NCBI GenBank assembly: GCA_038204565.1
Contig: JBBRCU010000014.1
Coordinates: 3,541-67,540 of the forward strand
DNA: 64,000 nucleotides
Direction: 5' to 3'
Source of the DNA: Candidatus Limnocylindrales bacterium
Lineage (GTDB): Bacteria; Chloroflexota; Limnocylindria; Limnocylindrales; CSP1-4
Each line of letters starts with the position of its first letter. The first letter of the stretch is position 1. The position numbers and the translations under genes are program-made. Positions 23,796 through 56,907 of the stretch are shown here, piece by piece. The notes under the pieces are model-generated. The model saw only the letters and a program-made list of their open reading frames with translations, was not told where the DNA came from and did no database searches.

Positions 23796-24236
23796 TCAGA
23801 GACGCTTCCGGAGGTAGGCCGCGACGGACCCGTCGTAGCCGAGCTCCTCGTACAGCCGCCGGGCATCGGGCCGGTGGTGACCGGCAGTCACTTCGGCGAA
23901 GGCTGCGCCGAGCTCGCGCCCGAGGCGCTCCGCCTCCGCCATCAGCAGCCGCCCGATCCCGCGGCCGCGCTCGCCCGGGTCGACGACGAGGGCCATCACC
24001 CGGATGATCCGGTCGGAATGCTCGAATCGGGGCAGGGCGTGGACGGCGGCAAATCCGACGACCTCCGCGCCGTTGTCCGCGACGAAGACCTTCGAGAACT
24101 CCGAACCGAAGCGGGCCAGACGCTCGACGATGTCGCTCGGGCCGGCCGGGTAACCCTCGTCGGTGAAGAGCGCGGCAATCCGCGTGGCGTCGTCCGGCGT
24201 TGCCGTCCGGACGGCGATGGGCTGGCGATCGGTCAT
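23796..24236 (-). CDS. GNAT family N-acetyltransferase
   Basis: LVVDPGERGRGIGRLLMAEAERL is the acetyl-CoA binding motif A. The protein is 146 aa. Confidence 0.85.
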   Translation of the reverse strand: MTDRQPIAVRTATPDDATRIAALFTDEGYPAGPSDIVERLARFGSEFSKVFVADNGAEVVGFAAVHALPRFEHSDRIIRVMALVVDPGERGRGIGRLLMAEAERLGRELGAAFAEVTAGHHRPDARRLYEELGYDGSVAAYLRKRL

Positions 24237-24727
24237 GGCCGCGATGGTACCGCCGCAGGCTGGACGAGGACCACGAGCGATCCGCCGATCCGATCGCCGA
24301 GGACCACGACCGCAACCCCGAACGGGCCGACCTCTGGACGGCTGAGGCGCGCCCCGGCGGCGGCTGCCAGCATCCGGAGGCGACCGAGGTCAAACGGCGC
24401 CATGAGATAGCTCCCGGAATGACCTTCGCCGCGGCGGGCAAGCGTTGCCGCGAGGCGGCCCTCGGTCGAGGGTTCTGCGAGGGCGATCGACGGACCGTCG
24501 CGAGACGGGAGAATCAGGACCATGGCGCCGAGGAGCGGGTCGGCGACGGCGCCGCTCGGATCAGCCCCGATCGGCCGGTCGAGGGCCGGACCTGGCGCGG
24601 CACCCGCGCGGAGCTCGTCGAGCGCCCGCTCCATGTCCACGGTGCCCCAGATCCGGGCGAGGATCCGGACGGTCGAGGCGTCGTCGCCGAACCAATCCGG
24701 CACGTCGTTCGGGGGCCGGACGATCAC
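24233..24727 (-). CDS. Hypothetical protein (possibly glyoxalase/VOC-like fold)
   Basis: The 164-aa ORF has 4-nt ATGA overlaps with both neighbours, which implies an operon. The family call is weak. Confidence 0.55.
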   Translation of the reverse strand: MIVRPPNDVPDWFGDDASTVRILARIWGTVDMERALDELRAGAAPGPALDRPIGADPSGAVADPLLGAMVLILPSRDGPSIALAEPSTEGRLAATLARRGEGHSGSYLMAPFDLGRLRMLAAAAGARLSRPEVGPFGVAVVVLGDRIGGSLVVLVQPAAVPSRP

Positions 24728-25660: not shown

Positions 25661-26683
25661 TCAGGCGGGTCGGTCGACGACGAACAGCGACGCACCAGAG
25701 CGCAGGTCGACGACCGTCGGTGCGGGCGCCCCGGCCTCGGCGAAGAGCGCGAGATAGCCATCCCGGGTGAACATCCGCGTCCCCTGGTAGAGCTCGTCGA
25801 TCTGGATCCCCCAGAGCAACTCCGCCTGGAGCGACGGCGGCTCACTCATATCGCCAGGCTCGTCGGGCAGGCACCACTCGAGGACGACGAGCCGGCCGCC
25901 GGGAGCCACCGCGGCCCAGGCTGCTCGCAGCGACCCCGCCAGGTCGGGCAACTCGTGAAGTGCATCCTGGAGGTAGGCCAGATCGAACTCGCCCCGGAAC
26001 GGCATGTCCGGGATCGTCCGCGACTCGATCCGGATCCGGTCGCCCAGACCCGCCTCGTCGACGTGGCGCTGGGCGCGCTCGACCGAATCCGGCTCGAACT
26101 CGACGCCGACGAGGCTGGTCGAGGTGAACCGTCGGGCGACGGCGATCAGCCACTTCCCACCGCCGCAGGCCACGTCGAGGATCCGGCCGCCGCGGTTGAG
26201 GGCCGCCGCCAGGTCGGGCAGCTCGGCAAGGCCCTCCTGGAAGAAGACGGTGATGTCCTGGACGGTGACCGCCTCGATCGCCCGGTGGAACCGCGGCGGT
26301 CGCTCGACCACCGCTGGACCGCCCCGGACGAAGTCGGCCAGACCTGCGTAGTCGAGGCTCGACACGACCGCGACGACGAACTGTCCGCCGAGGTACGCGG
26401 GGTGGGTGTCGTCGAGGAGGATGTCGGCGATGTCGTCCCCGACGGTCGCCCTGCCGGCCACGAGCTCGAGGAGATCGCCCGCGTGCGCGGCGCGGACCCA
26501 TGCCGCGATCGGCTCGGGCCGACAGCCCGCGGCGGCGGCCAGCTCCGCCGCCGTCAACCCCGCGGCGCCCGCGGATCGGATCCGGCCAAACAGCCCGAGA
26601 TCCAGGCCGAGGTACACCACCCAGCTGCGGTAGAAGCCGCCGACGGCCGCCGCGAGCTCCTCGAACCGGTCCTCCCTGCCCAT
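25661..26683 (-). CDS. Class I SAM-dependent methyltransferase (O-methyltransferase-like with an N-terminal winged-helix/dimerisation domain)
   Basis: From the ATG at 26683: MGREDRFEELAAAVGGFYRSW... The SAM motif is RILDVACGGGKW, followed by GGRLVVLEW. The rest of track ORF 25661..27250 is a spurious extension across the divergent sigma gene. Confidence 0.8.
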   Translation of the reverse strand: MGREDRFEELAAAVGGFYRSWVVYLGLDLGLFGRIRSAGAAGLTAAELAAAAGCRPEPIAAWVRAAHAGDLLELVAGRATVGDDIADILLDDTHPAYLGGQFVVAVVSSLDYAGLADFVRGGPAVVERPPRFHRAIEAVTVQDITVFFQEGLAELPDLAAALNRGGRILDVACGGGKWLIAVARRFTSTSLVGVEFEPDSVERAQRHVDEAGLGDRIRIESRTIPDMPFRGEFDLAYLQDALHELPDLAGSLRAAWAAVAPGGRLVVLEWCLPDEPGDMSEPPSLQAELLWGIQIDELYQGTRMFTRDGYLALFAEAGAPAPTVVDLRSGASLFVVDRPA

Positions 26684-26696
26684 GTCCGGAATTGTC

Positions 26697-26725
26697 GCAC
26701 GCGGGTGGTGCAACCGACCGCGTGC
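26697..26725. promoter_or_regulatory. 8-bp perfect inverted repeat (GCACGCGG-N13-CCGCGTGC) in the 63-bp divergent promoter region
   Basis: It lies between the methyltransferase operon start (26683) and the ECF sigma start (26747). It is a candidate operator. Confidence 0.35.
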
Positions 26726-26746
26726 CAAGGGTGTTTCATTGACGTG

Positions 26747-27322
26747 ATGGATGACCGCCGATCCGACGACGCCGCGCTCGCCCATTCGCTCGCCGTCGAC
26801 CTTGACGCATCCTTCGAGGCCGTGGTCCTCGTCCACCAGGACCGGCTGTTCACGATCGCGCTCCGGACCCGCGGCGATCGGGCCGAGGCCGAGGAGCTGG
26901 TCCAGGACACCTTCGTCCGCGCCTACCGGGCCCTGGCCGCCTGGCCGGCCGAGCGAATCCGGGAGCTCCGGATCCGCGGCTGGCTGACCACGATCCTGCT
27001 CAACGCGGCCCGCAACCGAGCCCGGGTCAGGCGGGTTCCGACGACCGAGCTGGTCTTCGATCCAGGCGCCGAGCCGGCCGCGGATCCGCTTGCTCGGCGG
27101 GACGATCGCGAGACCTGGGCCCGCCTCCTCGGCGGCCTGAGCCCCGCCCAGAGGACAGCCGTCGTCCTGCGTCACGTCGACGGGCTGTCGTACGCCGAGA
27201 TCGCCACGGCGACCGGCCGACCCGAAGGCACCGTGAAGGCCGACGTCCACCGCGGGCTGGCCGCCCTGCGCACTGCGCTCCTAGCCGCCGAGCGGCAGGA
27301 GCGCGAGGAGATCCCCGCATGA
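26747..27322 (+). CDS. ECF-type RNA polymerase sigma-70 family factor
   Basis: Region 2 is EELVQDTFVRAYRALAAWP...GWLTTILLNAARNRAR. Region 4 is LSPAQRTAVVLRHVDGLSYAEIATATGRPEGTVKADVHRGL. It is 191 aa. Confidence 0.9.
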   Translation: MDDRRSDDAALAHSLAVDLDASFEAVVLVHQDRLFTIALRTRGDRAEAEELVQDTFVRAYRALAAWPAERIRELRIRGWLTTILLNAARNRARVRRVPTTELVFDPGAEPAADPLARRDDRETWARLLGGLSPAQRTAVVLRHVDGLSYAEIATATGRPEGTVKADVHRGLAALRTALLAAERQEREEIPA

Positions 27323-28119
27323 CCGACCTGATCGATCCCACCACGGAGGCCGCCCTGGCCGGGCTCAGCGAGCCCGCCCCGCCCGGTCTGGCCCACGCCA
27401 CGCTCGTCGCGGTCGGCCTCGCCGACGACTATGCAGTGATCCCCTCGCCGGTGGGTCCGCTGCGGGTCGTGTGGAACGGCCGCGGTGTGTCGGAGGTCTC
27501 CGGCGAGACCGACGAGGTGGCATTCAACCGCCGCTTCCTGGCCAGGACCGGCCGTCGCGCCCGGCGCGTCGCCGAGATCCCCGCGGGGCTTGCCCGCAAG
27601 ATCGAGAGGCGGCTCGCGGGTGACCGCCACAACCGGATCGATCTGGACCTCCGCGGCGCATCCGAGTTCGAGCGGGCGGTCTGGCTGAAGGCTCTCGAGA
27701 TCCCGCGGGGCGAGGTCCGGCCGTACGGCTGGATCGCCGCGGAGATCGGCCGGCCGAAGGCGGTCCGGGCCGTTGGTACGGCCCTCGGCCACAACCCGGT
27801 CCCCTTGATCGTGCCCTGTCACCGGGTCGTCCGAAGCGACGGGATGATCGGCCAGTATTCGCTCGGTGGGCCCGAGAACAAGCGGAGGATCCTGGCCGGG
27901 GAGGGCGCAGACCCCGACGGCCTCGAAGCTCTCGCCCGCGCCGGCGTCCGTTACTTCGGCTCCGACACGACCCACATCTACTGCTTGCCGACCTGCCGCG
28001 ATGCCCGCCGTGTCACCGCGCGGCACCTGGTCCACTTCGCGTCGGCGAGGGCCGCGGCGACCGCCGGCTACCGGCCCTGCCGCCACTGCCGGCCGACAGC
28101 AGGCTCCGCGGTCGCCTGA
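27319..28119 (+). CDS. Fusion protein: methylated-DNA--protein-cysteine methyltransferase (MGMT/Ogt) with a C-terminal Ada-type zinc-binding domain
   Basis: The MGMT active site is LIVPCHRVVRSDG, preceded by YGWIAAEIGRPKAVRAVGTALGHNP. The C-terminus IYCLPTCRDARRV...AGYRPCRHCRP matches the Ada N-domain Cys4 pattern (CxxxC...CxxC). An ATGA overlap joins it to the sigma gene. Confidence 0.85.
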   Translation: MTDLIDPTTEAALAGLSEPAPPGLAHATLVAVGLADDYAVIPSPVGPLRVVWNGRGVSEVSGETDEVAFNRRFLARTGRRARRVAEIPAGLARKIERRLAGDRHNRIDLDLRGASEFERAVWLKALEIPRGEVRPYGWIAAEIGRPKAVRAVGTALGHNPVPLIVPCHRVVRSDGMIGQYSLGGPENKRRILAGEGADPDGLEALARAGVRYFGSDTTHIYCLPTCRDARRVTARHLVHFASARAAATAGYRPCRHCRPTAGSAVA

Positions 28120-28184
28120 GTGCCGACGGAGTTGGCGCAGGCGGACCGAAGCCGTACACTGACCGGATCTTGGACCAGCCAACT

Positions 28185-29162
28185 ATGCCAACCGTTCGCG
28201 CCCGACCCGCCTCCGCGGCCCTGATCTGGACGGCGATCCTCATCCTCTACGTCGTCTGGGGCTCGACGTACCTCGCGATCCGGGTCGCGGTCGAGACCTT
28301 TCCGCCGTTCGTCATGGGCGCCGTTCGCTTCTCGATCGCCGGGCTGGTGATGCTCGTCGCGGTCGTGGTCGCCAGGCGTGGCAGGGTCGTTCGGCCGACC
28401 CGCCGTGAGCTCCGCGATTGCGCGATCGTCGGGACCTGCCTGATGTTCGGCGGGATGGGCCTCGTGTCGTGGGGCGAGCAGACCATCCCGTCGGGGATCG
28501 CGGGGGTCGTCATCGCGACGATGCCGGTCTGGGTGGCGATCTACGGCCGACTCTTCTTCCGGGAGCGCCTGCCGGGCCTCGCGATCGTCGGAATCGTCGT
28601 CGGAATGATCGGAGTCGTGATCCTCGTCGGCCAGGGCGTGGCCGTGGATCGGAGCCTCGACCCCGCCGGGATGGTGGCCCTGATCCTGTCGCCGATGGCC
28701 TGGGCGGCCGGGGCGACGTTCTCGGCCCAGCGGGCCCGGCTGCCGTCCGACCCGTTCCTCGCGACCAGCCTCCAGATGCTGTGCGGCTCGGCGGTCCTGG
28801 CAGGGGTCGCGTTCGGATCCGGTGAGCTGGCCACCTTCCGGCCAGAAGCCGTGTCGGGCGAGGCCATCCTCGGGACGGCCTACCTGACGGTCGTCGGCAG
28901 CCTGGTTGCGTTCACCGCGTTCGTCTGGGTCATCCGCCACGCGCCCTTGCCGCTCGTGACGACGTACGCATTCGTCAACCCGGTGATCGCGGTGCTCCTC
29001 GGGGCGCTGCTGCTCCACGAGGCGGTCGGTCCGGTTCAGTTGGGCGCCGGCGGCGTCATCGTCGCCGGGGTCGCCCTGATCATCATTGCCCGGAGTCGGA
29101 TGGCCCGAGTGGCGATGACATCGCCCGCCGATCCCCGATCCGATGTGGCCGTCGCTGCCTGA
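28185..29162 (+). CDS. EamA/DMT-family transporter
   Basis: It is a ten-helix hydrophobic protein. The N-terminus LILYVVWGSTYLAIRVAVETFPPF is typical EamA. An ATG at 28185 is preferred over the TTG at 28170. Confidence 0.85.
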   Translation: MPTVRARPASAALIWTAILILYVVWGSTYLAIRVAVETFPPFVMGAVRFSIAGLVMLVAVVVARRGRVVRPTRRELRDCAIVGTCLMFGGMGLVSWGEQTIPSGIAGVVIATMPVWVAIYGRLFFRERLPGLAIVGIVVGMIGVVILVGQGVAVDRSLDPAGMVALILSPMAWAAGATFSAQRARLPSDPFLATSLQMLCGSAVLAGVAFGSGELATFRPEAVSGEAILGTAYLTVVGSLVAFTAFVWVIRHAPLPLVTTYAFVNPVIAVLLGALLLHEAVGPVQLGAGGVIVAGVALIIIARSRMARVAMTSPADPRSDVAVAA

Positions 29163-29207
29163 CCAGTCGATCGTCGAGACGCGGCGACGGTCAGAAGGCG
29201 GCGCCGG

Positions 29208-31271
29208 TCAGGAAGCGGCGCCGGCTTCTGCGGCCACCGTTCGGGCGACCCGCCGAGCGAGGGCCATGATCGTGATCATCGGGTTGACCCCGAGCCCGGT
29301 CGGAAACAATGAACCGTCGCCGATGTAGAGCCCTGGGACGATGCTCCCTGTCCGCGTCCGGAGCCGGCCGTCCGGATCGCATGGGTGGCCATCGACGGAC
29401 GCACCCATCCGGACCGAGCCCATCTGGTGGGCGGAGAACACCGAGCCACGGTTGGGCCCGAAGTCGAACGAGCGCAGCGCGTCCTGGAAGACGGTGAACG
29501 CCCGCGCCTCCTGCCCTGATCCAGACCCGGACCGGCCGTGCCAACGTGGCGGCGTACCCGCGGCCAGGATCTGCCGGGCGCCGGCGGCCCGGGCGAGTTC
29601 GGCCATCGAGCCAAGCGCGTGGCGGAGGGTCGCGATCCCGCGCGCGTCGAGGCGGTAGTCCACCCGGGCGCGGCCGCTCGCCGTGAGCCGCACCCGGCCC
29701 TCTCCGCCATCGCGGGTGACCGCGATCAACGGCGCCACGTGGCGGATCCTGCCGAGCAGCGCCGCGTGGGCGTCGGTCCCTTCCCACGGCAGGGCCAGCG
29801 CGATCAGGCCGGGATGGCCGGGCGCGGATTCGATCGCGTAGCCGTTGCGGTTGCCGTCCGGACGCACGAACTGGAGCGATCGGGCGGCCTGCATCGTGCC
29901 CCGCCACATCTCGATCGGATCGTCGAACAGGCCAGCGATGACGGGTACCGGATGGAGCCGCAGGTGGCGGCCGATGACGGGGTGATCGAAACCTGACGCC
30001 AGCAGGACGGCCGGCGTCCGAAGCGCGCCGCCGGCGATGACGACCTGGGGCGCGCGCACGATCAGCCGACGCATCCGCGGCTTGCTCGAGCCTCCGGCCG
30101 GTGCGGCGCCGATCTCGGGAGCCACGCTGAGCAATTCGGCCTCGATCCCGCTGGCCCGTCCGCCCTCGAGGAGGACGCGGGTGACCCGCGCCCGATCGAC
30201 GATCCGGGCGCCGCCGGCCGCCGCCGTCCGGAGGTGAACGCGCAGAGTCGACTGCTTCGTCCCGCGCGGGCAGCCGAACGGGCAACTGCCGCAGTCGCCG
30301 CAGTCGGCCGCATTGCGCCGGATCGGCGCCGCATCCCAGCCGAGCGCCGCGGCGCCACGCAGGATCGCCTGGTCCTTGGGCGGGATCACGACCGCGGGCG
30401 CCACCCCCAGCTCGGCCTCGACGGCGGCCAGATCCCGGTCGAAATCGGGGCCGTCGATCCCGGCGATCCCGTGCTCGCGCGCCCAGTCCAGGCGAACGTC
30501 CTCCGGAGCGGCGATGCACGTCATCCAGTTGACGAGCGTGCCGCCGCCGACGCCCGCCCCCGAGAGCATCGTCAGCGAGCCGTCCCACGTCGTCAGCAGG
30601 CCGTGGTTGAGGTAGGTCCGGTCGAAGGCGTCCATCTCATTGGTGGGGAGGTGAGCCTCGTCGAGGAACGGACCGGCCTCGACGACGACGACGGACCGGC
30701 CGGCTCGCGTCAGCTCGGCGGCGATGACGCCGCCACTCGCCCCCGATCCGATGACGACGACGTCCGCGCTCAGGACGAGCGGCTCCCCGCCGGCAGGGGC
30801 CGGCCCGTGGATGTCGAGGGGCAGGATCGGCGTCAGGTCCGGCGTGATTGGTGGCCGGTCGGGGACGTAGCCGATCGCCGCGTGCAGCGGGTTGACCTGA
30901 CCGGGCGGTCCCGGGTCAGCGTAGGCGAGGAACGTCAGGAGCCCCCGGAAGGCCTGGAACGCGGACCGCCGCAGACCGAAGCGCGACGTCGCCCAGCCCA
31001 GGAGGACCCGCTCCCGATCGGCCGGCGTCCGGTCGCGGAACGACACTGCCCGGCCGGTCAGGAGGAGGTTCACCGCTCGGGACTCGACGAGCCGCAGGAC
31101 GAGCCGGAGCTGCCGCACCTGGGCCGGGTCCGCCGCTCGCGACAAGGCCGCGGCGGCGAGGTTCGAGCGCCGGACGGAGCCGCCCCGGACGAACGTCTCG
31201 GCCAGCTCGGCCAGCGTCGCGAGCTCGGCCGGCGTCCAGCCGGCTGGGGCGGACACGGGCGAGCTCGTCAT
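29208..31271 (-). CDS. GMC-family FAD-dependent oxidoreductase (long-chain alcohol oxidase-like)
   Basis: The FAD motif is VVVIGSGASGGVIAAEL, followed by GAGVGGGTLVNW. The C-terminal part GLYIGDGSLFPTGLGVNPMITIMALA is present. The start is taken at ATG 31271 (MTSSPVSAPAGW). Confidence 0.85.
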   Translation of the reverse strand: MTSSPVSAPAGWTPAELATLAELAETFVRGGSVRRSNLAAAALSRAADPAQVRQLRLVLRLVESRAVNLLLTGRAVSFRDRTPADRERVLLGWATSRFGLRRSAFQAFRGLLTFLAYADPGPPGQVNPLHAAIGYVPDRPPITPDLTPILPLDIHGPAPAGGEPLVLSADVVVIGSGASGGVIAAELTRAGRSVVVVEAGPFLDEAHLPTNEMDAFDRTYLNHGLLTTWDGSLTMLSGAGVGGGTLVNWMTCIAAPEDVRLDWAREHGIAGIDGPDFDRDLAAVEAELGVAPAVVIPPKDQAILRGAAALGWDAAPIRRNAADCGDCGSCPFGCPRGTKQSTLRVHLRTAAAGGARIVDRARVTRVLLEGGRASGIEAELLSVAPEIGAAPAGGSSKPRMRRLIVRAPQVVIAGGALRTPAVLLASGFDHPVIGRHLRLHPVPVIAGLFDDPIEMWRGTMQAARSLQFVRPDGNRNGYAIESAPGHPGLIALALPWEGTDAHAALLGRIRHVAPLIAVTRDGGEGRVRLTASGRARVDYRLDARGIATLRHALGSMAELARAAGARQILAAGTPPRWHGRSGSGSGQEARAFTVFQDALRSFDFGPNRGSVFSAHQMGSVRMGASVDGHPCDPDGRLRTRTGSIVPGLYIGDGSLFPTGLGVNPMITIMALARRVARTVAAEAGAAS

Positions 31272-48325: not shown

Positions 48326-48401
48326 TGGCGTCCCCGGCAGGGTTCGAACCTGCGACCTTCCGCTTAGAAGGCGGTTGCTCTGTCCACTGAGCTACGGGGA
48401 C
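48326..48401 (-). tRNA. tRNA-Arg (anticodon TCT), CCA encoded
   Basis: The reverse complement is GTCCCCGTAGCTCAGTGGACAGAGCAACCGCCTTCTAAGCGGAAGGTCGCAGGTTCGAACCCTGCCGGGGACGCCA. It folds as a 76-nt cloverleaf with acceptor GTCCCCG/CGGGGAC and T-arm GCAGG-TTCGAAC-CCTGC. The anticodon loop is CTTCTAA. Confidence 0.9.
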
Positions 48402-56830: not shown

Positions 56831-56907
56831 TGGTACCGCATACCGGATTCGAACCGGTGATCTCCGCCTTGAGAGGGCGGTGTCCTGGGCCTCTAGACGA
56901 ATGCGGC
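56831..56907 (-). tRNA. tRNA-Glu (anticodon CTC), CCA encoded
   Basis: The reverse complement is GCCGCATTCGTCTAGAGGCCCAGGACACCGCCCTCTCAAGGCGGAGATCACCGGTTCGAATCCGGTATGCGGTACCA. The anticodon arm is CCGCC-CTCTCAA-GGCGG and the T-arm is ACCGG-TTCGAAT-CCGGT. Confidence 0.9.

Follow-up and report, generated by a model that had tools for sequence, protein, structure and literature searches.

In the 64,000-nucleotide stretch of Candidatus Limnocylindrales DNA analysed here (assembly GCA_038204565.1, contig JBBRCU010000014.1, positions 3,541 to 67,540; hereafter the window), a gene for a sigma factor of the extracytoplasmic function (ECF) type is followed, in the slot normally taken by an anti-sigma factor, by a gene for a DNA repair enzyme: a fusion of an O6-alkylguanine-DNA alkyltransferase (MGMT) with a C-terminal Ada-type zinc domain (coordinates in Table 1). 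The question raised by this locus is what holds the sigma factor in check, and what signal lets it go. Among the alternative sigma factors of bacteria, the ECF type makes up the largest family, and to our knowledge dozens of its groups lack a known input. A preliminary description of the locus had proposed that the fusion itself sequesters the sigma factor and releases it on self-methylation. The comparisons set out below favour the same reading, with a probability of about 0.55: the fusion would be the anti-sigma partner in an ECF pair, a soluble, DNA-scanning suicide alkyltransferase that lets sigma go when it alkylates itself, and this would be a sigma/anti-sigma pair with an unprecedented sensor.

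The two genes lie exactly as the preliminary description had them, the ATG of the fusion and the TGA of the sigma gene sharing the tetranucleotide ATGA at 27319-27322, and a public assembly with an identical protein carries the same gene calls (methyltransferase, 340 residues; sigma factor, 191; fusion, 266; EamA transporter, 325). The sigma factor consists of regions 2 and 4 only (Pfam Sigma70_r2, E 9e-12, and Sigma70_r4_2, E 2.5e-16); it scores 65.2 bits with the NCBIfam sigma70-ECF model TIGR02937 (cut-off 42.9), and its nearest solved structure is that of mycobacterial SigE (E 3e-19).

The pairing of the two genes is kept over large distances. Of 503 relatives in a scan with one genome per species, the best 80 loci were retained, mostly from metagenome-assembled genomes labelled Limnocylindria or Chloroflexota; a sigma homologue lies directly upstream of the fusion in 79 of these 80, the single locus without one having just 80 nucleotides of flank. 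Identity to the window proteins ranges over this set from 64 to 88% for the fusion and from 46 to 85% for sigma, and the 4-nucleotide overlap is kept in 66 of the 69 intact pairs. Outside the class, eight further neighbourhoods on long contigs all have an ECF sigma gene (181-204 residues) directly upstream, overlapping the fusion gene by 4-14 nucleotides, abutting it, or 32 nucleotides apart, while the remaining neighbours differ in all eight (NHL-repeat protein, PhyH, peptidase M20, MFS transporter, TauD, rhomboid and others); other phyla account for at least two of these neighbourhoods, namely Gemmatimonadota (L086) and Acidobacteriota (L087). As sigma stays upstream while the other neighbours change, the sigma-alkyltransferase pair is a conserved unit and, judged by these genomes, is not a product of chance; the adjacency and overlap to which the preliminary description had drawn attention thus hold among the relatives as well.

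The sigma factors on their side share a signature between regions 2.2 and 2.3, Y-x3-R-[IC]-R-x-L-x-[LI]-[RK]-x-W-L, which is common to the window sigma and the paired sigmas of the other clades; the window sigma is 27-52% identical to the latter. Together with the similar promoter motif in the loci of the sister clade described below, this points to a single ECF group for the sigmas of all clades. The segment bearing the signature (window 26900-26990, sigma residues about 60-85) is unusual, and could be a marker of the group or a part of the partner interface.

Some public metagenome calls join the overlapping genes into one. The single open reading frames P0239, P0261, P0171 and P0177 combine sigma with MGMT; their domain matches are truncated, as in frameshift artefacts, and they are not used as evidence here. 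P0211, in which MGMT is joined to EamA, is likewise best explained as a frameshift artefact of overlapping genes. Such apparent fusions, to which P0180 also belongs, could mislead surveys of domain architecture.

A link between the alkyltransferase and anti-sigma factors comes from a sister clade of the fusion. Homologues number more than 7,000. A HMMER search of cluster representatives at 50% identity yields about 220 clusters below 1e-30, and about a dozen full-length members carry 40-60 additional N-terminal residues bearing the motif H-x3-C-x2-C of the zinc-binding (ZAS) anti-sigma factors; the corresponding Pfam domain, the ZAS anti-sigma zinc finger zf-HC2 (PF13490), reaches or exceeds its gathering threshold in five of ten members tested. 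In the relatives of one such protein, P0151, the motif stands at the N-terminus of the same protein of MGMT and Ada zinc domain in 119 of 120 cases. By their names, the sources of this ZAS clade are Acidobacteriota, Longimicrobiales (Gemmatimonadota) and Chloroflexota. A profile of its first 80 residues matches RsiW (5WUQ, E 7e-6, positions 1-69), RslA, DdvA and ChrR, and its invariant residues C4, H30, C34 and C37 correspond to the zinc ligands of RsiW, which are C3, H30, C34 and C37 (PMC5358783). In the AlphaFold2 (AF2) model of P0151 (predicted local distance difference test, pLDDT, 92.9), helices H1 (residues 4-16), H2 (21-33) and H3 (35-53) form a three-helix bundle, which is followed by a linker of lower confidence and by H4 (62-70), running into the first strand of MGMT. 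By its sequence and predicted fold, the N-terminus of P0151-type proteins is a textbook class I anti-sigma domain. ZAS-fused members were not found reported in the literature searched and are new here.

The window protein appears to have kept the end of this domain. In hhalign, residues 7-43 of the window's clade match the stretch 45-79 of the ZAS-clade profile with a probability of 95.6% (E 1e-8), and a mafft alignment gives the same register. The AF2 model of the fusion has helices at residues 7-14, short and variable, and 24-31; the first corresponds to the second half or end of H3, the second to H4 (62-70 in the ZAS member). The helix-4 segment follows the conserved pattern L-x3-AP-x2-L-x3-L-x3-GLAD-x-Y, of which L16, P21, G33 and D36 are invariant within the window's clade, and over this clade the conservation of residues 16-37 matches that of the MGMT N-domain (1.25 versus 1.29 bits); to judge from the alignment, these residues are under purifying selection. 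The OGT of Mycobacterium tuberculosis, like ordinary Ogt proteins, begins where this N-terminal segment ends. The fusion cannot be extended further towards the N-terminus, since the stretch from the upstream stop (which ends at 26805) to 27319 contains no in-frame start codon. The preliminary description had seen no recognisable anti-sigma domain nearby; this holds for Pfam, but not for profile comparison, which finds the N-terminal remnant. A helix-4 remnant of this kind was not found reported in the literature searched.

What such a remnant could do is suggested by the class I anti-sigma factors. In solved complexes their helix 4 lies over sigma regions 2.1/2.2, the surface for the beta-prime clamp of RNA polymerase, and of the 14 strongest coevolution contacts with sigma-2 it accounts for 12 (PMC7406223). 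Because helix 4 covers this surface and carries nearly all of these contacts, it is plausible that it could serve, by itself, as a minimal inhibitory module.

The remainder of the fusion is a complete enzyme with a second acceptor site, as the preliminary description had recognised from its PCHRV core and C-terminal Cys4 domain. Pfam matches DNA_binding_1/MGMT at residues 116-196 (E 2e-30) and Ada_Zn_binding over the zinc domain (E 9e-12; 45.3 bits, cut-off 23); M. tuberculosis OGT (4BHB) aligns over its whole length, with both of its domains, to residues 38-193 (E 3e-23), and residues 27-76 of Escherichia coli N-Ada (1ADN) align to residues 211-261 (E 6e-7). The AF2 model of the monomer (pLDDT 89.6, predicted template modelling score, pTM, 0.81) superimposes on M. 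tuberculosis OGT in Foldseek with a template modelling score of 0.78-0.79, normalised to the target. Residues Y136, R150 (the arginine finger), N159 (the Asn hinge), C167, H168 and R169 are invariant in 49 sequences of both clades, and so are the four ligands of the zinc site, C222, C226, C254 and C257 (spacing C-x3-C ... C-x2-C). The catalytic cysteine is kept in 490 of 508 fetched family members; the 18 without a standard match are mostly fragments or frameshifted open reading frames, at least two of them keeping the cysteine as GCHR or ACHR, and no cysteine-less, alkyltransferase-like (ATL) form is seen among the 508. The Cys4 pattern is present in 418 of the 449 members of at least 240 residues. 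As the acceptor cysteines and the DNA-binding residues are invariant, alkyl transfer is, by the measure of sequence conservation, integral to the fusion protein and not vestigial.

How little of the protein the pairing requires is illustrated by locus L088 (3001-3591), where a member of 196 residues consists of the helix-4 segment and MGMT only, without the ZAS motif or the Ada zinc domain, and overlaps the upstream ECF sigma gene by 4 nucleotides. This form may be a minimal version of the system; as it lacks both zinc modules and is still coupled to sigma, the universal core would be helix 4 plus an active MGMT.

The promoter region is conserved, too. The motif of the window has the AAC ... 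CGT/GTT character typical of ECF promoters, and its -10-like GTGTT ends 11 nucleotides 5' of the sigma ATG, which is so close that the sigma mRNA would be leaderless or nearly so. The pattern GCAAC[C/G]-N15-16-[C/G][G/T]GTT stands at a fixed offset upstream of sigma in all 69 intact loci, and in five frameshifted ones in addition; three of four ZAS-clade loci (L081, L086, L087) have GAAC-N16-17-(C)GTGTTA upstream, the fourth (L083) being without a clear match. With an ECF-type promoter in front of sigma in every one of the 69 loci examined, autoregulation of the operon is probable, and the conserved promoter would provide the positive feedback expected of a sigma/anti-sigma operon. It was not found reported in the literature searched. 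Scans for consensus sigma-70 promoters and intrinsic terminators over 26400-29500 found nothing.

In the window, the promoter pattern occurs three times (0.39 expected), the other two matches being intragenic. An exact match lies inside the sigma gene itself, at 27012-27037 on the plus strand (the codons for NRARVRRV), and recurs at the same place in several relatives (L005, L010, L019, L022); it is probably a coding coincidence.

These elements can be assembled into a switch. In the resting state, the N-terminal remnant, comprising helix 4 and the end of helix 3, would hold sigma. When DNA is alkylated, the fusion would repair it by irreversible transfer of the alkyl group onto itself, adducts of O6-alkylguanine and O4-alkylthymine going to Cys167 of the MGMT core and methylphosphotriester groups to Cys222 of the zinc site; either or both of these cysteines would act as the trigger. 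The alkylated fusion would lose the packing between its N- and C-domains and set sigma free, because the MGMT N-domain carries the anti-sigma helix as a direct extension. Parallels are known: alkylated O6-alkylguanine-DNA alkyltransferases (AGTs) are destabilised via the interface between their N- and C-domains and degraded, which is a common theme among them (PMC4605297), and at the Ada zinc site methylation acts as a switch, both conformational and electrostatic (PMC10779285). Free sigma would then transcribe from its own promoter, giving more sigma together with the EamA exporter and newly made alkyltransferase; the latter would recapture sigma after the damage is gone, resetting the system. 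As far as the anti-sigma partnership of the original proposal is concerned, it gains from the conservation of the pair across phyla, the ZAS domain on the same protein in the sister clade, the helix-4 part in the window protein and the near-universal catalytic cysteine and Ada Cys4 site; it is retained here in conditional form. The wider claim, that this is a widespread adaptive response independent of Ada, in which damaged DNA inactivates an anti-sigma factor by passing its alkyl groups irreversibly to it, the factor acting as a covalent, single-use fuse that couples repair stoichiometrically to sigma release, is more tentative, with a chance falling a little short of even.

The association of an ECF sigma factor with an alkyltransferase is not in itself new. 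For group ECF122 (Casas-Pastor et al. 2021, as summarised in a 2022 review, PMC8999054), the entry in the review gives a 6-O-methylguanine DNA methyltransferase as the conserved neighbour and WP_057211282.1 from Cellulomonas (Actinobacteria) as the representative. The association is thus already catalogued, and less unprecedented than the preliminary description had assumed. The window locus is apparently ECF122-like, a likeness that is drawn from the MGMT neighbour and the description of the group: in both, an ECF sigma gene adjoins an MGMT gene, the window locus being from Chloroflexota whereas the ECF122 representative is from Cellulomonas. The summary of ECF122 in the review mentions neither an Ada zinc domain nor ZAS-fused members nor a helix-4 remnant (PMC8999054). 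A connection to ECF122 and cultured Actinobacteria was also sought through a short member without the Ada domain, P0250, and was given up, as the search yielded no actinobacterial names and, for the most part, members of the same fusion family.

Several points weigh against an anti-sigma role of the window protein. It lacks the H-x3-C-x2-C motif and helices 1-3 and has no Pfam anti-sigma match, and with these parts the sigma-4 side of the canonical dual interface is missing. Helix 24-31, which has high pLDDT in the monomer, may pack on the MGMT N-domain instead of being free. Mutual information between sigma and fusion, with average product correction (APC), shows no N-terminal enrichment in 78 pairs, an underpowered set with an effective number of sequences of about 61; the N-terminal segment contributes 15 of the top 100 covarying pairs, against 16% of the variable columns. 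ECF122 is listed in the review under unknown mechanism and without a cognate anti-sigma factor (PMC8999054). Further regulon promoters are not found in 732 kb of related loci, where the matches other than sigma's own promoter lie inside the sigma coding region or lack a following gene, so that the locally visible regulon would be the operon genes alone. The missing helices and zinc motif, the ECF122 listing, the confident prediction of helix 24-31 in the monomer and the lack of a covariation signal in the underpowered set of pairs all favour an alternative in which the fusion is cargo only, i.e. an inducible repair enzyme co-transcribed with a sigma factor that is controlled otherwise (transcriptionally or by an unlinked factor), with an N-terminus that in this lineage is left over from a lost anti-sigma domain or caps the MGMT N-domain structurally. 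This arrangement, the main rival of the anti-sigma reading, is unlikely: it has to contend with a pairing and 4-nucleotide overlap that are kept nearly without exception while other neighbours change, with the constraint on residues 16-37, which equals that on the enzyme's N-domain, with ordinary Ogt proteins such as that of M. tuberculosis, which start where the segment ends, and with the complete anti-sigma domain that occupies exactly this position in the proteins of the sister clade.

Two further alternatives concern the nature of the signal and the sign of the regulation. The fusion could be an anti-sigma factor that senses electrophiles or oxidants by direct zinc-thiolate chemistry, as in RsrA/SigR, with the MGMT core serving mainly to keep the complex on DNA. 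Zinc-thiolate sites are reactive, thiol-reactive stress elicits a response from ZAS factors such as RsrA (PMC5358783), and proteins of the sister clade have both a ZAS and an Ada zinc site; however, the catalytic cysteine, arginine finger, tyrosine and Asn hinge of MGMT are invariant without any ATL-like members having come to light, and the L088 member is paired with sigma in the absence of either zinc module, leaving an active alkyltransferase as the common denominator, which makes direct thiolate sensing quite improbable. Still more remote is a positive role, in which the alkylated form, bound to DNA, would bring the ECF holoenzyme to target promoters or stabilise it there, in the way methylated E. 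coli Ada contacts sigma-70. Methylation of Ada Cys38 does raise DNA affinity and make Ada an activator (PMC10779285), and both acceptor modules of Ada are present in the fusion, but the fusion has no AraC-type or other sequence-specific helix-turn-helix, no conserved operator-like element is seen beside the -35/-10 motif, and the homologous module of the sister clade is an inhibitory anti-sigma domain.

The anti-sigma reading, which remains the preferred one, places the fusion between three known systems. With E. coli Ada it shares the Cys4 zinc domain (C222 being the equivalent of Cys38), the PCHRV alkyltransferase and, probably, the logic of positive autoregulation (PMC10779285). Ada differs in having its zinc domain at the N-terminus, followed by an AraC-type helix-turn-helix and a C-terminal MGMT, and in acting as a DNA-bound activator, whereas the output of the fusion would be the release of a dedicated sigma factor; the reversed order and missing helix-turn-helix pointed out in the preliminary description are upheld by the Pfam matches, which include no AraC domain, and by a score of 102.7 bits with the equivalog model for E. 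coli-type Ada (NCBIfam NF011964), far below the cut-off of 345. With the class I/ZAS anti-sigma factors (RsrA-SigR, ChrR-RpoE, RsiW-SigW, RslA-SigL) the system has in common, in the sister clade, the CHCC motif and the four-helix class I anti-sigma domain (ASDI) and, more generally, a gene that overlaps sigma and lies directly downstream of it in an operon with a promoter that is probably autoregulated; the sensors of those factors are a redox zinc site, a cupin or a membrane/periplasmic domain, while here it would be a suicide enzyme of DNA repair. Stand-alone Ogt/MGMT proteins (M. tuberculosis OGT, 4BHB), finally, have the same two-domain fold with all catalytic and DNA-binding residues, but lack the 37-residue N-terminal segment and the C-terminal Ada zinc domain and are not paired with a sigma factor.

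Beyond the ECF122 listing, no alkyltransferase acting as an anti-sigma factor and no ECF-controlled alkylation response was found in the literature searched; the main text of the ECF classification paper does not mention the association, and sigma factors are nowhere mentioned in a review of the alkyltransferase family from 2023 (PMC10779285). That an Ada zinc domain regularly belongs to the protein was likewise not found reported in the literature searched. The present analysis thus assigns to an ECF122-like class a concrete anti-sigma candidate, of recognisable anti-sigma origin, together with a candidate signal, and extends this class to the soil and freshwater phyla Chloroflexota, Acidobacteriota and Gemmatimonadota. 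If the proposal is correct, this would be the first sigma/anti-sigma switch with a DNA lesion as its input, and a second, independent wiring of the two suicide sensors of Ada to transcription, by release of a sigma factor and not through an AraC-type activator; it would also be one of the rare regulators that are consumed stoichiometrically by their own signal, and the window lineage would demonstrate that one anti-sigma helix on the N-domain of an enzyme suffices to hold sigma. With a sigma factor, an anti-sigma candidate and a defined promoter in hand, the system might find use as an orthogonal switch that counts doses of damage.

Table 1. Features of the sigma-alkyltransferase locus and RNA genes of the window (positions in the window).
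Feature	Position	Strand	Details
ECF-type promoter (putative)	26710-26735	+	GCAAC-CGACCGCGTGCCAAGG-GTGTT (GCAAC-N16-GTGTT)
ECF (group 4) sigma gene	26747-27322	+	191 residues; reading frame as in the preliminary description
Fusion gene (alkyltransferase and Ada zinc domain)	27319-28119	+	266 residues
Putative anti-sigma remnant, fusion residues 1-37	27319-27429	+	hhalign to ZAS-clade profile; AF2 helices
O6-alkylguanine-DNA alkyltransferase, complete, two-domain, residues 38-200	27430-27918	+	Pfam PF01035; OGT alignment
Suicide acceptor Cys167 in PCHRV (residues 166-170)	27817-27819	+	codon TGT
Ada-type Cys4 zinc domain, residues 210-259	27946-28095	+	Pfam PF02805
C222, equivalent of E. coli Ada Cys38 (methylphosphotriester acceptor)	27982-27984	+	codon
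EamA/DMT-family membrane transporter	28170-29162	+	Pfam EamA, two repeats; public call starts at ATG 28185
tRNA-Arg(TCT)	48326-48401	-	Rfam
tRNA-Glu(CTC)	56831-56907	-	Rfam

The neighbouring genes fared differently as the regulon members that the preliminary description had suspected them to be. The EamA transporter lies directly downstream of the fusion (less than 250 nucleotides) in 71 of the 78 Limnocylindria loci with room for it, the stretch between the two genes containing neither an ECF motif of its own nor a promoter-like or terminator-like site, and is missing around the pairs of the other clades in the eight neighbourhoods described above; it is probably the third gene of the sigma operon, in the class Limnocylindria only, and to this extent the suggestion stands. 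It finds no support for the divergent operon of methyltransferase and GNAT genes, which has no copy of the ECF motif and a sigma-70-like extended -10 of its own, and is found directly upstream in only 29 of 65 loci. The methyltransferase was also considered as a partner conserved across clades and rejected, the methyltransferase adjoining the pair in L090 not being homologous to that of the window. In the divergent operon, the two GNAT genes flank an open reading frame of 164 residues (24233-24727, minus strand), which is called as a gene in the public assembly and has no Pfam match at E <= 0.01. No Rfam families other than those of the two tRNAs reach the gathering score in the 64-kb window.

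The divergent methyltransferase gene starts at 26683 on the minus strand, and 7 nucleotides upstream of its ATG lies TGCGACAAT (the minus-strand reading of 26684-26705), which resembles an extended -10 for the housekeeping sigma factor. Read on the plus strand, the element is found again, as GATTGTCGCA, in some 28-30 of 69 related loci, and it suggests that the methyltransferase mRNA is leaderless and made from a sigma-70-type promoter. The sigma-70-like and the ECF promoter would thus stand back to back within an intergenic region of 63 base pairs.

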